A stretch of 64,000 bases of DNA, taken from sequence record OR352953.1. One strand, 5' to 3'. Position numbers and translations under genes: made by a program. Positions 4,717 to 58,814 of the stretch are shown piece by piece. Each line of letters opens with the position of its first letter. Positions within the stretch are counted from its first letter, which is position 1. This DNA is from Escherichia phage AV123. The notes beneath the pieces were generated by a model. It saw only the letters and a program-made list of their open reading frames with translations. It was not told the origin of the DNA and searched no databases.

Positions 4717-5148
4717 TTAATCAGTGAAAATTACGCTTACATCTTCTTTAGAGAAGAGTTTATGATCTTCACCTTTTGTCTCAAGAGTTTCATACAGGTT
4801 AAGAAGTTCTGAAACATCCTTCTCTACCAGTTTCTTCAATGTTGCAATTTTCTGTTTGCGATTCTTAATACGTTCAGCTACAACCTTACGTTGGTATCCG
4901 GCAGTACGATAACCTGAGAAAGTTACACCAGTGAGACTTGCAGTTACAGGATCGTAATGACGTTCAATCTGAAATTTATTAAAAGGTACAGCGTCATCAC
5001 GAATAATCTTACCGCCATTACTTACTTGACGAAGACCAGTAACTTGTTCCAGTCGTGCCATAGAAATCTTTGGAGACAGACCAGAGTCCAGGTTCATACC
5101 GTTGTTAATCAGTGCTTTCAGGGTGATTTTGCTGTTCAGTGTACTCAT
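4717..5148 (-). CDS. Hypothetical protein
   Basis: GGAGGAA RBS before ATG at 5148; overlaps 3' end of the methyltransferase gene. Confidence 0.5.
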   Translation of the reverse strand: MSTLNSKITLKALINNGMNLDSGLSPKISMARLEQVTGLRQVSNGGKIIRDDAVPFNKFQIERHYDPVTASLTGVTFSGYRTAGYQRKVVAERIKNRKQKIATLKKLVEKDVSELLNLYETLETKGEDHKLFSKEDVSVIFTD

Positions 5149-8033: not shown

Positions 8034-10613
8034 CTAGTGACAACTGGCCCATGAGTTACCAACATCGTAACCAGCAGTGAGAGGTACATTAAGATTGTAA
8101 TACTCACCAGCTTTATTAACAGCGATAGATGCTAATTCTCCAGCACGACTGTAGGCTGTAAACCAACCACCTTTTGGAGACTCATGTACGTTAGCCCAAA
8201 TCTTGCCAGTACGTTTCTCTTCCTCTTCTTTCCAGGCATTAACTTTATCCAAACATTCTTTATCAATTTTCTTTTGTTCATCTGGATCATCAACTTGAGT
8301 CCAACCTAAAGATTCTTTAGAGAACCATTTAAAATGCACCAGATCACGAGTTACTTCAAGCTGTGCTTCATCGTGATATGCAATCATTTGTTGAACGAAT
8401 GACTTATTTTTCCAGTCATCAACAAAAAAGTCAACAGCTAATCCTTCTTCTTCGATAAGATCGTCGTAGATAACCATTGCTCTTTTTGCACAAATAACAC
8501 CACCACTCTGGAACAGAGAGTTAAGTATTGCGTGTGCAGATCGTGTAGGTACTTTTCTACCATCAATACCAAGAATGTATTTCTTACCTGTTTTAACCCA
8601 AAAATCATGCAGACGTTCTTTAAGAAGCGCAAGAGGTTTTGCAGCTTCCCAGAAAGCATCGTATACAAGCTGTCCTGTATACATATCACTACCTATAGTT
8701 TTTGCTACTTTTGCAGCTTGAGCACCATAAGTAATACCATACTTAACAGATTTAGCAGGGCTTCGTTCAAACTTACGACCAATAGTGTCAGAAATACGTC
8801 GAGCCATCATTGTATGAACATCATTAGGTTTTTCCAATAACAGAGCATTACAATATTCGTGTGGTTCCTGCTCGTACCGCCAACAGTAGTGTGATTCTAT
8901 TTTTGCCTCAAGAGAATCAAAGTCATAACCAATTTGGAAATATTTTGGAACTTCTACACCAAATAAGTTACGCATTTCATATCCGTACAGAGATGTTACA
9001 CGTGGGATATTTGCTACTAACCTATGTTTCATACGAGACGTAGCTGCATCACACGTTGCAGCAGGAGTTGGTATACGACCATCAGCCCTTACTGCCGCCA
9101 GATAACCTTTATCGTAATCCTCTTCATCTTCTTCCCAATCAGCACCACCCCCTAGGATAGAGTTTCTACGATGTTTATACGTAAGATACTGCACAATCTG
9201 CGTAGCATAAGGAAACTTTTCACCTAGTGCTTCCAAGTTAGGACAAATATCCTTCTCTTGCCCTTTTGTAAAGGAAGGGTTAGTAAGCACTTTAACACCA
9301 CGACCTTTAGCTTTAGCAATACGATCTCTTAGTTTCCATTCCAAAGTTTCTGGTGTGCACTCCAGATGATCACATCTGTCCTGGCAGAAGTTAGATGCTA
9401 ATGTTTGATCAACATAGTCACGAATAGCTTTCTCCATTTGTGCTTCATCTTTCTTAATCTTAGTGCCAGATTTAAGAGTGATATCTTTATCTTTATATTC
9501 AGATGGACTCCAACCTAAACCAACCAGCCAATTTTTAATATGCGTAGTGTCGTCTAAAGTAGCAGGTACTGTAGGATCACAAATAGGTTCCTCTGCTGGA
9601 ATAGGGAGTTTAAACTCTTTACCTAATGCAAATAACCACCAACCATCTTCTTTTTGTACAAGTTCACCAGAATGTTTCTCTGCAAACTTTACCATGTTAC
9701 TTGAAGGTTCACCATTCTTTTTAAACTGTAGTTTAGGTGGAATGAATGATTTCAAATAACCTTTAGTAGCAGGTTTAGGAGGTAGCACAGGTTCTGCCTC
9801 TAAACGACATGCTTCCATTCGAGCATCCAGATCACGAATATTATCTTCTGCTTGTTTCATATTGAAAGCAAAGCCACGGTGCTCTTGACGTGTAATAATA
9901 TCAGCTACACGTTGTTCTAAGTTAAATGGTTCAGACCACTTACTATAATCACCCCACTCTTCCATCAAATAACGGAACACTGCGGTGTTAGCTTTGTTAT
10001 CGTAAATACAGTAATACAGCATATCTGCTGCAAATGTTCTAAATCTTTCAGCTTCAGGAATGTTTTTTCTGAAATCAATTTTAACATCCCCTCCAGCCTT
10101 CTTAGATAACTCTGCCAGACTATGACCACCGAAGCGATCAGGGTTTAGTGTCTTACTTAAGATCATAGTATCACAAATTTCAATGTTACTATTACCCCAA
10201 GTATTGTACTTAACACTGTAGTTGAGTTTAAAAAATAATTTAATTGCCAGTAAGTCGAAGTTAATGATGTTGTGTCCAACTACTTTGGTAATTTTATAGT
10301 TTGAATTACCTTTAAATTTACCTGTTCCATTTACAAAATCAGGAAAATCTTTAAGAGGGAAATGGGTATATTCTAAATGCTCATATTCCTCCAGTCGGTA
10401 TTCATACTTTCCGTCAGTCTCAACATACGGACGACCATCGAAAAGATATTTATCACCATCATGGAAAGCAATAATCTCTCCAGTATCATGACTTTCGCAC
10501 ACAATACAGTGCATTGCAAAACTATCTTTTAAACGATATGGACTTGCCAAGTAATCTACACTTTCGTCATTAAGCAAGTTGTTACTTTCAATGTCGAAAG
10601 TAAAAGCTCCCAT
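8034..10613 (-). CDS. Family A DNA polymerase
   Basis: AGGAGGG RBS; motif A-like DFDSLEAKI, motif B-like RSPAKSVKYGITYG, motif C YHDE; 859 aa. Confidence 0.85.
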   Translation of the reverse strand: MGAFTFDIESNNLLNDESVDYLASPYRLKDSFAMHCIVCESHDTGEIIAFHDGDKYLFDGRPYVETDGKYEYRLEEYEHLEYTHFPLKDFPDFVNGTGKFKGNSNYKITKVVGHNIINFDLLAIKLFFKLNYSVKYNTWGNSNIEICDTMILSKTLNPDRFGGHSLAELSKKAGGDVKIDFRKNIPEAERFRTFAADMLYYCIYDNKANTAVFRYLMEEWGDYSKWSEPFNLEQRVADIITRQEHRGFAFNMKQAEDNIRDLDARMEACRLEAEPVLPPKPATKGYLKSFIPPKLQFKKNGEPSSNMVKFAEKHSGELVQKEDGWWLFALGKEFKLPIPAEEPICDPTVPATLDDTTHIKNWLVGLGWSPSEYKDKDITLKSGTKIKKDEAQMEKAIRDYVDQTLASNFCQDRCDHLECTPETLEWKLRDRIAKAKGRGVKVLTNPSFTKGQEKDICPNLEALGEKFPYATQIVQYLTYKHRRNSILGGGADWEEDEEDYDKGYLAAVRADGRIPTPAATCDAATSRMKHRLVANIPRVTSLYGYEMRNLFGVEVPKYFQIGYDFDSLEAKIESHYCWRYEQEPHEYCNALLLEKPNDVHTMMARRISDTIGRKFERSPAKSVKYGITYGAQAAKVAKTIGSDMYTGQLVYDAFWEAAKPLALLKERLHDFWVKTGKKYILGIDGRKVPTRSAHAILNSLFQSGGVICAKRAMVIYDDLIEEEGLAVDFFVDDWKNKSFVQQMIAYHDEAQLEVTRDLVHFKWFSKESLGWTQVDDPDEQKKIDKECLDKVNAWKEEEEKRTGKIWANVHESPKGGWFTAYSRAGELASIAVNKAGEYYNLNVPLTAGYDVGNSWASCH

Positions 10614-45961: not shown

Positions 45962-46177
45962 TATTTTGAAAATTTTTATTTTTATAAAAAGGGGTGTGGG
46001 TTTCATGTACGGAAATTCACCCTCTGAATAATATATTCAGAGTAAATATTATTTTGTACTCTGTTAATAAATTATTTAATTTGTTTGTTGGATTATGATA
46101 TCTGGTTTTTAAAAGGCATACTATCTCTTAACTACTATTTATAACAGAACAGTAAAATCATTTTTATAAAAAGGACA

Positions 46178-46390
46178 AAATTATTTAAAGTTTTTACAGA
46201 TTTTTGGATACAAATTTTGAAAATGAAAAGTTCAAGTTTGGTCAAAATTATTTAAAGTTTTTGTATGTATTTCTATCCAGATTTTGAAAATGAAAACTTC
46301 AATTTTTTAAAAATTCCCCAGTTTATTTAAAGTTTTTTTGCCTTTTTCCGTAGAAAAATCAAAAATGAAAAGTTCAATTTCGTGTTTTTA
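46178..46390. repeat. Three tandem direct repeats (66-78 bp units)
   Basis: AAATTATTTAAAGTTTTT...TTTTGAAAATGAAAAGTTCAA recurs at about 46178, 46244 and 46320. Confidence 0.6.
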
Positions 46391-46394
46391 TAGG

Positions 46395-46510
46395 TGTGTT
46401 AATGAGAATCATTTTCGTTTGTAAATGAGAATCATTATCATTTAACTATGTAAGTGATAATCATTCTCACTAAGAGAATGAGAATCATTAGCAAATGAGA
46501 ATTTTTCTCA
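46395..46510. promoter_or_regulatory. Cluster of Fur-box-like palindromes
   Basis: AATGAGAATCATT (46401), AATGAGAATCATTATCATT (46424-46442), GATAATCATTCTC, and perfect inverted repeat AATGAGAA-TTT-TTCTCATT (46492-46510). Confidence 0.5.
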
Positions 46511-46774
46511 TTTAGAGAATAACGCGCAGGGGTGGTGTTTGTCTCGCGCTCCCGTGTCCCCTCGCCATACAATAAGAATAGCATAACCAACAACAAAAGC
46601 AAGCGATTATTTTTATCTTTACATTTCTTTACAAATTTATTTTAGACGAGCTACCAGCGATCAACCTTCCAACCAGTGCCCCCTGGTATGTTAGCCCCGC
46701 CTTTACGCCGTGGGGATGGCGCTTCCTCTTCTGTATGTAAAACAGTATAAGCCCGATCCCTGGGCTTGTCAAGA

Positions 46775-53010: not shown

Positions 53011-53110
53011 TAGGTTTTATAGTTGTACGCTTTAAAGGCTTGACAATTTTTTGTTATGCTTTAAACTATATCTTGAAAACGGCAAAGGCCGCAAACAAAA
53101 GGGTAAAATT

Positions 53111-56690: not shown

Positions 56691-57074
56691 ATGAGCAATA
56701 TCATCAACCTGGCGGCTACTGTAAACGGTAAAGACTTTAACGGCGCTGTAGACCGTGATCCTATGTGGTGCTTGTCAGTGTTTAAAGGTGACTTGGTTGA
56801 AGTTAGAACAACCGAAGGGTATAGCGATGATTATAAATGCGAGATCCATTTACACAACTGGTACACGGGTAAAACTTATGCACTGAATCATGCGTTTATC
56901 GGCAAGGTTGAATATAGAGAAATGATCGACGAAGAAACGGGGCAAGATTTTAGCGAGCATGTTTATATTCGTTCAGAAACATTAGCCGAACGTTTGATCG
57001 AGAAAATGAAAGCAAAAAATAAAATTAATTTATCTCATTGGATTGATATAACAAACGATCCAGCTTATCAGTAA
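56691..57074 (+). CDS. Hypothetical protein
   Basis: ACGAGGAA RBS. Confidence 0.5.
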   Translation: MSNIINLAATVNGKDFNGAVDRDPMWCLSVFKGDLVEVRTTEGYSDDYKCEIHLHNWYTGKTYALNHAFIGKVEYREMIDEETGQDFSEHVYIRSETLAERLIEKMKAKNKINLSHWIDITNDPAYQ

Positions 57075-57088
57075 ATAACATTTCAAAC

Positions 57089-57116
57089 AAGGGCGCTTAT
57101 TGCGCCCTTTCTTTTT
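57089..57116 (+). terminator. Hairpin terminator closing the island
   Basis: AAGGGCGCTTATTGCGCCCTTTCTTTTT. Confidence 0.7.
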
Positions 57117-57321
57117 ACCTAAATAAAGATGATAGCTTTTACCTATCAAAAACGTTCACCGAAAAAAGTGAATAGATCGCGGTATCGAGCTAATCAAGGA
57201 GCAGATGAACAACCATACCATGAAGATCATAAGGCGCTTACAACGTGTTTTAGACCGCTTATTTTTAATTTCTTCATGTAATTACCTGGCAAAAACAGCC
57301 TTTTTCTTGTCTTTCCTCTTA

Positions 57322-57397
57322 AATGATAATCATTCTTATTTATAGCTGATTATTTATGCAATAAATTGCATAATGCAATAATGAGAATCATTCTTAA
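57322..57397. promoter_or_regulatory. Fur-box-like sites flanking an 18-bp palindrome
   Basis: AATGATAATCATT at 57322-57334 (exact Fur-box core), TAATGAGAATCATTCTTA at 57378-57395, palindrome TATGCAATAAATTGCATA between them. Confidence 0.5.
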
Positions 57398-57689
57398 CTT
57401 AAGACCATCTAACCTATAAAATAATAAGTTATCTAACTAAATTAAAACTAATTATCTCACCTTTATTTATAACTTACTGTTACTATCTCATTGATAACAT
57501 TGTATTAAACAATAATAACTAATATAAATCATTACTAAGCTAAATATAATCTATCTAACCCTTAAAACTACAATTATAATCTATCGAATTGTTGCACAAA
57601 GTAACTATTAAATTGTTAGTAACATTACTAAATAATTCACATCCTATCTATTTATGATCTAATCTTTACCTTCCTATCTATTACTTAGA

Positions 57690-57737
57690 TAATCATTTCA
57701 TACAGTAACCATTTCATGTAGTAATCATTCCATACAA
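57690..57737. repeat. Three tandem 16-bp iteron-like repeats
   Basis: TAATCATTTCATACAG / TAACCATTTCATGTAG / TAATCATTCCATACAA. Confidence 0.55.
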
Positions 57738-58241
57738 TAACTATAACAAGAAATATAATTCGCAAGCGTATCATTAGCAGCCTATGCCGGACACATAGGC
57801 GGCTAATAATAACGCAACTACACACCCCACATAATAACCATCACCGATAGTTATTATTTGTGCTTATGTAGCTTGCAACAATTGCAAGCGCAACAATATA
57901 CTAGGGTATATTGTATCCCTTACATTGTTGCGGTGCGTTATTATTAGCTAATGTTTAGAACATTGGCTATAATATAAGCTATCCAATAATAAACATGGTG
58001 AATAATGACACTGATGATCATAATGCGCCACCCTCCAGGGGGCGCTATGTGAACACAAAGAAATCTTTCTTGTCAAGAAAAATATCACCATTATTGCGCA
58101 AAATTATTTATATCTGAATAGATGATTTTTCATACTATTGCCCCCTTGATTATTACCATTTGTTGAGCCTACTTTCTTAAAAGCGCAATAAAATAGAATT
58201 ATATTGATTTTTAGTCGGTTTTATAGTACAGAAAGTATGCA

Positions 58242-58455
58242 AATGATAATCATTATCAGCTATCTTCCACGGGTGGCACTATTTCACACCAGATCATTTC
58301 ATTTGGCAAGGTGTATATAGATGTTTAGACTTGCCAAGCCATTGATTTCCTTAGAATTTATCTGTTTTGTTGTGAGTAGTACCTTTCTTGCTTAGAAAAT
58401 AATCAAAAGTCTTATAAGTCATTGAATGATAATACAAATGATAATTATTCTCATT
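58242..58455. promoter_or_regulatory. Fur-box-like sites upstream of the 58.8-kb gene block
   Basis: AATGATAATCATTATC at 58242-58257 (16/16 to positions 4-19 of GATAATGATAATCATTATC); AATGATAATTATTCTCATT at 58437-58455. Confidence 0.5.
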
Positions 58456-58814
58456 GATATTTGAGGGGGACGGTCGGCAGAAATCGGGGGGTGCTGAAAA
58501 TCGCGTTAAGCACCTCTCGCAAGCGAGCAGTATTTTGCGGCAAGTTATTGATATTATTGACTTTACGCTTATGAAAAGGGGGTGTGTCGAAATAAATCGG
58601 GTATACCGGAAAATTTTTGTGGCATAGATATTTATTTGTCTATATTATGTACAAAGGGGTGTGTTAAAAATAATAGGTATATATAGAATAATTGATAGGG
58701 AATATCTATACTAATTCCTCCATTAATGATATTCCTATGCTACTGCTCTTGTAATAGATGAAAAGACGCTGTATGATGTGTGGCATGAAACGTAAACTTA
58801 TAAAGGAGTCTGAT

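Follow-up and report, generated by a model that had tools for sequence, protein, structure and literature searches.

Escherichia phage AV123, a phi92-like myovirus of the subfamily Stephanstirmvirinae, carries near what appears to be one end of its genome a set of DNA boxes that, by motif and architecture, are operator sequences of the Fur family. These boxes were analysed in a window of 64,000 nucleotides (sequence record OR352953.1; the window denotes this whole stretch), where four of them lie in the right gap, a region of 1.7 kb without credible genes (57075-58757; GC content 0.32). Boxes 3 and 4 are both located inside the homologue of a direct terminal repeat, while boxes 1 and 2 form a pair 0.85 kb upstream of it, and a further cluster occupies a second large non-coding gap, the left gap. 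An earlier reading made from the letters alone, hereafter the sequence-only reading, had proposed a Fur-box-like motif family in this region, a likeness that was found to reach well beyond the 13-bp core.

Motif and architecture of the boxes

Direct reading of the sequence bears out the two exact matches to the Fur core that had been claimed, AATGATAATCATT at 57322-57334 and AATGATAATCATTATC at 58242-58257, whose 13-mers agree exactly with positions 4-16 of the Fur consensus GATAATGATAATCATTATC. The further variants announced near 57378 and 58437 were also found, as AATGAGAATCATT at 57380-57392 and AATGATAATTATT at 58437-58449. The boxes to which these cores belong, together with the left cluster, are the following:

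57318-57344, + strand: box 1, CTTAAATGATAATCATTCTTATTTATA; exact 13-mer core; matrix scores of 25.3 and 25.9 bits
57376-57402, + strand: box 2, CAATAATGAGAATCATTCTTAACTTAA, the G variant; matrix score of 21.4 bits
58238-58258, + strand: box 3, TGCAAATGATAATCATTATCA; matrix score of 27.7 bits; 77 bp inside the left terminal-repeat boundary
58423-58459, + strand: box 4 complex, TGAATGATAATAC-AAATGATAATTATTCTCATTGATA; matrix scores of 20.2 and 24.5 bits
46397-46516, + strand: left cluster of five to six co-oriented boxes, 17-29 bp apart; matrix scores up to 32.4 bits

Box 3 comes closest to the Fur consensus, with 17 of 19 positions in agreement at 58239-58257, and it includes a perfect 7-1-7 site, TGATAATCATTATCA at 58244-58258, that matches the core TGATAATnATTATCA at 15 of 15 bases; boxes 1, 2, and 4 agree with the 19-mer at 14-15 positions. 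Box 1 consists of two overlapping sites, one on each strand, offset by 6 nt. Fur boxes have been described as hexamers in a 6-6-1-6 layout, equivalent to two 7-1-7 sites offset by 6 bp (PMC11353095, PMC7536154), and the logo of the phage motif, drawn from 250 unique sites (TGAGAAT-GAGAAT-C-ATTCTCA, the first part being TG(a/c)(g/a)AAT when its variable positions are written out), fits this double arrangement. The resemblance extends to individual operators of the host. The 16-mer AAATGATAATCATTAT of box 3 is identical to the Escherichia coli entC operator at 16 of 16 bases, while the G variant AATGAGAATCATT, used four times in the window, is the core of a sequence located 20-60 bp upstream of iucA (the aerobactin operator) and found with 100% identity in 791 plasmids. 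The phage boxes, thus, share with the operators of iucA, entC-fepB, fepA-fes, and fepD-entS the consensus, the 6-6-1-6 layout, and overlapping sites offset by 6 nt. However, the E. coli operators are single sites placed over the promoters of iron genes, whereas the phage boxes occupy a terminal repeat or the DNA between convergent genes, often as spaced tandem arrays.

Weight matrices applied in both directions lead to the same assignment. A matrix built only from nine window sites, which themselves score 19-31 bits in leave-one-out, was scanned on a 26-kb stretch of E. coli K-12 surrounding the genes for enterobactin, and its top 8 matches all fall in the bidirectional promoter regions fepA-fes, fepD-entS, and fepB-entC, which are known to be controlled by Fur; the entC site reaches 29.4 bits, against 9.9 bits for the best match elsewhere in the 26 kb. 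Conversely, with a matrix for which five boxes of T5 and four sites of E. coli were the sole input, 15 of the 16 window matches of at least 14 bits lie in the three non-coding clusters described below, where + and - strand sites are paired at an offset of 6 nt. Beyond E. coli, the phage-type 19-mer GAGAATGAGAATCATTCTC is intergenic at 69 bacterial loci from very diverse phyla, and the genes flanking these loci are enriched in metal transport and regulation families (ZnuA, 6; ZIP, 4; FeoB, 3; FecCD, 2; FUR-family, 2; and ABC-3, 1). In a comparison by eye, the motifs of IHF, CRP, ArgR, E. coli Zur, NsrR, and the Irr ICE motif fit the boxes less well than Fur in spacing and half-sites.

Both gaps contain about 32% GC and many other repeats, and the boxes could, therefore, be regarded as a chance product of AT-rich, repeat-rich non-coding DNA. 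The shuffled-sequence control proposed with the sequence-only reading refutes this explanation, whose probability we consider negligible, as the motif stands far above composition-matched expectation. When one mismatch to AATGATAATCATT is allowed, the whole window yields 11 matches where 0.46 would be expected, and none of 100 shuffles produced as many; for the 19-mer consensus with up to three mismatches allowed, the corresponding figures are 5 observed and 0.03 expected. When the gaps are taken alone and their dinucleotides shuffled, 4 positions are counted in the right gap (shuffled mean, 0.027) and 5 in the left gap (0.012), and in either case 0 of 1000 shuffles attained the observed count. 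Strong sites in the 64-kb window are confined to three non-coding clusters. A relative whose complete genome spans 148 kb gives the same picture, as every match with three mismatches or fewer falls in one of the three homologous clusters. Moreover, the sites recur at homologous positions in diverged genera. The presence of boxes in both large gaps and their persistence in relatives, beyond what AT-rich DNA would produce, therefore argue for function, as the sequence-only reading had maintained.

The genome terminus and the elements around the boxes

Over 1.8 kb around the boxes, the window shows 93-97% identity to about 50 Escherichia phages of the genus Justusliebigvirus. The right gap is flanked on one side by a homologue of Phi92_gp248 and on the other by homologues of the first genes of the phi92 record. 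The phi92 annotation contains left and right direct terminal repeats of 343 bp each, and their homologue in the window is bounded by the sequences TTTGTTG/AGCC on the left and CGCGTTA/AGCA on the right (the slash marks the boundary). The phi92 and UAB_1 records stop at the equivalent of position 58508, and the records of W22, VEcB, and PD06 end at the equivalents of 58165-58175. A repeat of 342 bp has been reported for the phage BME3 (PMC12210895), and terminal repeats have been reported for the whole subfamily Stephanstirmvirinae (PMC12210895, PMC12695924). The repeat is present once in the window, as an assembly would give, and its homology to phi92 suggests that this phage has the same physical ends. 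Considering the repeat annotation of phi92, its placement by BLAST, and the record ends together, what had been taken for the right border of an island is, therefore, instead the terminal non-coding region of a linear genome, whose direct terminal repeat encloses two of the four boxes. The features that define this end are:

56691-57074: homologue of Phi92_gp248, the last gene of the right-end early block
58166-58508: homologue of the direct terminal repeat (343 bp in phi92), placed by the phi92 annotation and by BLAST at 96.5% identity
58199-58227, + strand: promoter-like element TTATAT-17-TATAGT that includes an invariant TTGATTT; conserved across three lineages (five phages)
58496-58522: block GAAAATCGCGTTA/AGCACCTCTCGCAA across the right genome end (slash); nearly invariant in the terminal-repeat alignment

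The order inside the terminal repeat is the promoter-like element, box 3, a conserved block TTGCCAAGCCATTGAT, the box 4 complex, and the right boundary. The predicted promoter-like element ends 11 nt upstream of box 3, and a similar element is found upstream of the open reading frame at 53051 (repeat family D20). The 21-mer of box 4 at 58433-58453 stops 55 bp short of the right boundary, so that the box is about 60 bp from it, and the block that spans this boundary is presumed to be the terminase cut site. To the right of the terminal repeat lie three GGGTGTG-type repeats, together with probable promoters for the first gene. A repeat family of the form (A/G)AGGGG(G)TGTG...AAATAAATCGG is observed at 45988-46005, 58463-58487, 58576-58600, and 58653-58677, the first of these where the left gap begins, the second on the right edge of the terminal repeat, and the other two between this repeat and the first gene.

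The boxes are maintained at homologous positions in phi92, phAPEC8, ukendt, ZCKP1, and KP13-26, which represent three lineages of Stephanstirmvirinae. The core of box 1 is kept in phi92, phAPEC8, ZCKP1, and KP13-26, while box 2 is polymorphic (G/T) among close relatives and degenerate in phAPEC8. Box 3 reads AAATAATAATCATTCTCA in phAPEC8 and ZCKP1, and the box 4 complex is the best-kept box block across the five aligned phages. The left array persists in Phapecoctavirus and in Klebsiella phages, although single copies weaken or strengthen between lineages. Within the alignments, the boxes are one among several conserved elements and not the most conserved of them. The other elements of the right gap are:

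57089-57109, + strand: intrinsic terminator after the Phi92_gp248 homologue, from a terminator scan; annotated in phages PATM and phAPEC8, and conserved in the alignment
57354-57373: inverted repeat TTATGCAAT-AA-ATTGCATAA between boxes 1 and 2, from sequence reading and alignment
57780-57950, + strand: conserved multi-hairpin element of 170 nt between the two box pairs, from RNAalifold

The best conserved stretch of the right gap is located at 57120-57250 (GATAGCTTTTACCTAT...AATCGCGGTATCGAGCTAATCAA) and is non-coding. A reading frame of 50 amino acids at 57129-57281 was rejected as a gene, since an indel of 1 nt between lineages breaks the frame within the conserved block. The 18-bp palindrome that had been placed between the two 57.3-kb sites does lie there, at 57355-57372 (TATGCAATAAATTGCATA), but its symmetry is imperfect: arms of 8 bp are separated by a spacer of 2 bp, an inverted repeat that becomes 9-2-9 when extended to 57354-57373. 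Its outer arms, TTATGCA-N6-TGCATAA, are invariant in five phages while the center varies, and the element is probably the site of another dimeric protein. Box 2 adjoins the -35 hexamer of a predicted sigma-70 promoter (TTAACT-17-TAAAAT, 57394-57422). Between this promoter and the multi-hairpin element, the DNA is AT-rich, contains short repeats, and is in part deleted in Phapecoctavirus. This element is closed by a perfect inverted repeat of 15 bp, GCTAATAATAACGCA / TGCGTTATTATTAGC, and, in nine phage sequences of three lineages, compensatory changes affect 15 of the 49 pairs predicted for it. Either a structured RNA or a DNA cruciform could be formed, and a few G-U pairs weakly favor the + strand; Rfam holds no match for the element. 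Searches for transfer RNAs and Rfam families gave no relevant match in either gap, and a permissive threshold returned three weak hits far below the gathering scores.

The left cluster is flanked by two convergent genes, gp223 (+) and gp224 (-), and 12.0 kb separate it from the right end inferred at 58508. Immediately upstream of it, at 46160-46380, are three direct repeats of 67-75 bp (ATTATTTAAAGTTTTT...TTTTGAAAATGAAAAGTTCAA), and the repeats and the array together look like an origin-like iteron region. A GC-rich non-coding block at 46510-46772 always adjoins the box array; its sequence is conserved in Stephanstirmvirinae and Vequintavirinae, in phages of Escherichia, Klebsiella, Salmonella, and Cronobacter, and in PVP-SE1 and CR8, both members of Vequintavirinae, the array again adjoins it. 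A sigma-70 promoter on the minus strand, itself conserved, is aimed into this block (TTGACA at 46772-46767, a spacer of 17 nt, and TATACT at 46749-46744). An indel of 1 nt argues against coding by the block, which as a candidate structured RNA folds no better than its shuffles (z = 0.5) and exhibits no covariation. Between 47565 and 56382, seven to eight cassettes, in each of which a strong sigma-70 promoter precedes the stem-loop GGGCGGGAAATGGTTTCCCGCC, stand before small early genes without assigned function, and they resemble the promoter-stem-loop cassettes of T4-type phages.

Related arrays in T5 and other phages

A BLAST search with the left gap unexpectedly matched T5-like phages across the box array. 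Copies 1-4 of direct repeat C and palindromes E-I of T5 (AY587007.1, 9468-9640) constitute an array of the same TTTAAATGAGAATCATT box, and the T5 boxes score 20-29 bits with the window-derived matrix. This array is located in Repeat Region 3, the injection-stop region, just before the shear point at ~9618 and the nick at 9661-9668. The fullest description of this region discusses its repeats and DnaA boxes, and leaves Fur and iron unmentioned (10.1101/866236). T5 and the window have in common the TTTAAATGAGAATCATT unit, co-oriented arrays of 5-6 copies, and their situation in non-coding DNA between convergent genes, as well as a distance of about 8% of the genome between array and genome end (T5, 9.5 of 121.7 kb; left array of the window, 12.0 of 148.6 kb). 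However, the T5 array is enclosed by a repeat of 10 kb and adjoined by paired DnaA boxes and by the large inverted repeats IRC/IRD, whereas the window has a 343-bp repeat and the DnaA box TTWTNCACA occurs in neither of its gaps. Moreover, the two-step entry of DNA is a feature of T5 that is not known for phi92-like phages.

Several observations were made beside this comparison. The phages chee24 (1500-1700 of the examined locus) and oldekolle carry Fur-type box arrays like that of T5, and in T5-like phages the box array is likewise followed by GGGTGTG-type sequences. About 150 bp from the left terminus of T5, apparently within coding sequence, there is a perfect 7-1-7 match, TGATAATCATTATCA (position 4871 of the contig examined, T5 terminal-repeat coordinate ~148).

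The IMG/VR database was scanned for two exact boxes 4-30 bp apart, a pattern for which the rough chance expectation is ~0.003, and at least 120 viral contigs were found to contain box arrays. Among the matches listed, the GC content ranges from 0.18 to 0.63. These arrays comprise 2-9 boxes with a period of 23-45 bp and, again among the matches listed, are co-oriented in 92 of 101 loci; one contig has 8 copies with a period of 38 bp, and another has four perfect 28-bp repeats at its end. Within the same set of listed matches, the commonest recognisable neighbours are large terminase subunits of several unrelated types, often at less than 2 kb; where the layout is of the cos/pac type the arrays are upstream of the terminase gene, and where it is of the T7 type they are downstream. 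These loci have no DNA-binding family in common, and no assembly terminal repeat was present on the whole-contig loci. The motif is not specific to the small terminase of this phage, as terminases of at least four unrelated types have it beside them and metal regulons of bacteria use it too. BLAST of three of the IMG/VR array loci against cultured phages gave no match and, thus, no third cultured example with mapped ends, while a 17-mer from the right boundary of the terminal repeat matched mostly unrelated IMG/VR contigs.

Host Fur sites on phage DNA have precedents of another kind. Fur boxes lie upstream of the sitABCD cargo genes of lambdoid prophages (PMC6969025). Such prophage boxes resemble those described here in placing a site for host Fur on phage DNA, but they are single operators at the promoters of iron-related cargo, whereas this phage is virulent, has no iron gene beside its boxes, and carries the sites at the genome terminus. 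The gene stx1 is another temperate-phage cargo gene with a Fur box. In the packaging region of lambda, cosB contains the IHF site I1, which provides a different parallel, since it is also the site of an abundant host DNA-binding protein located tens of bp from a terminase cut, although the protein and the motif differ; to our knowledge, a role of Fur in packaging has never been shown.

Possible roles of the boxes

The reading that we put forward, and hold to be about as probable as its opposite, is that host Fur bound to the terminal boxes blocks or insulates transcription across the genome end. Once the DNA enters the cell, Fur-Fe2+ already present in the host would occupy the boxes, and each extended operator of ~27 bp could take up to two Fur dimers. 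The resulting complexes would block or insulate sigma-70 transcription, and possibly other tracking along DNA, across the genome end, to an extent that would depend on iron and on the copy number of the genome. A binder from the host Fur family is favored over a phage protein because the motif recurs across unrelated phages and hosts, has the layout specific to Fur, and is used in bacterial metal regulons. Regarding the outcome, we infer repression or insulation, as steric action is the established mode of Fur and boxes 2 and 3 stand beside promoter-like elements, which makes it the most conservative outcome for the box pairs. Timing, iron sensing, and aid to end formation are candidates for the biological benefit.

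Several findings weigh against this reading. We infer the binding of Fur and its occupancy of the boxes in vivo from the sequence, and the third position of the hexamer is commonly G, unlike that of the classical GATAAT. No iron-related gene was found near the boxes, as all 20 neighbour proteins searched belong to PHROG families without assigned function, and box 3 is absent from KP13-26 in the alignment. Conservation is also modest: in the terminal-repeat alignment, where the background is itself well conserved (0.67), the boxes stand marginally above it with a column identity of 0.84, a value that 260 of 5000 random windows also reach, and neither at 57.3 kb nor in the left gap are the boxes conserved above background. 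The predicted promoters are weak consensus matches, of which 22 were found against 14.5 expected, and a recognisable promoter of a coding gene is evident neither at the left array nor at most arrays in other phages. Since the arrays are mostly off recognisable promoters, simple repression of the operator type therefore fits the box pairs better than the arrays. The missing iron genes, in turn, lower the claim of membership in the Fur regulon and not the claim of Fur binding.

The array form, the place in the terminal repeat, the parallel with T5, and the association with terminases make an architectural role the serious rival, in which the boxes, bound by Fur or by another protein, are not transcriptional operators but landmarks for transactions at DNA ends. 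They might position or slow a terminase or nickase at the terminal-repeat boundaries, or pause the entry of DNA as in T5. Boxes 3 and 4, at 77 and ~60 bp inside these boundaries, are within ~100 bp of the inferred cut sites, the T5 boxes lie inside the injection-stop region near the shear point and the major nick, and, among the matches listed, the IMG/VR arrays are near terminase genes, where genome ends are expected, and are iteron-like (a single orientation in 92 of 101 loci, repeating every 23-45 bp). However, the largest array of the window is 12 kb from the terminus, DnaA boxes are missing here, unlike in T5, and the number of independent lineages behind the terminase-flanked contigs is probably no more than about ten. 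Moreover, the non-coding DNA of phages clusters near termini anyway, so that the association is partly expected, and we judge an architectural role unlikely, though well worth keeping in view. A protein encoded by the phage, such as a small terminase subunit, a replication initiator, or an early repressor, is distinctly improbable as the binder, with the likeness to Fur then being coincidence or mimicry. The tandem, co-oriented, iteron-like left array with its three adjoining 67-75-bp direct repeats, the terminase genes close to the arrays in other phages, and the dozens of small neighbour proteins without assigned function are in line with such a binder. Nevertheless, a PHROG search of 20 box-neighbour proteins revealed no candidate, the layout of the box is the asymmetric one of Fur, and the 21-bp motif recurs beside metal-uptake genes in many bacterial phyla and in unrelated phages with a GC content of 0.18-0.63, at least four terminase types, and no common DNA-binding family.

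A further explanation regards the boxes as a sponge, in which about ten strong sites per genome, multiplied by replication, titrate host Fur; host iron uptake would then be derepressed, or phage promoters repressed by Fur would be released at high copy number. Fur boxes in multicopy do titrate Fur in the Fur titration assay, and the cell contains thousands of copies of Fur. Titration agrees with the many strong sites per genome, none of them beside an iron gene, and with arrays of up to 8-9 boxes in other phages among the matches listed. However, the fixed positions in the terminal repeat and the conserved neighbours would be needless for pure titration. T5 destroys the host DNA early, which would make derepression of host genes pointless in that phage, and the probability of a sponge appears low. 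The farthest-reaching possibility is that Fur-family box arrays are a general device of tailed phages that recruits the host metalloregulator to the terminus and controls DNA entry or end formation. The array would then be the protein-binding part of the T5 injection-stop signal, and phi92-like phages would have a staged entry in which the 46.4-kb array bounds an early block of ~12 kb that enters first. We regard this as a speculative extension with rather little chance of being correct in full.

Fur boxes at the promoters of prophage cargo genes are known, whereas their location at the terminus of a virulent phage and in the T5 array appears, from the sequences compared, to be new; in a literature search of partial coverage, no paper was found that connects Fur boxes with phi92-like phages, with the injection-stop region of T5, or with the termini of phages. 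The textbook role of a Fur box is that of an operator for iron genes, and the conservation of such boxes in a terminal repeat without an iron gene points to an undescribed use of a host regulator. Moreover, on this reading the injection-stop repeats of T5, catalogued for decades without a function, would gain a name and a candidate binding protein, and the arrays near terminase genes in at least 120 contigs of uncultivated phages suggest that the phenomenon is widespread.

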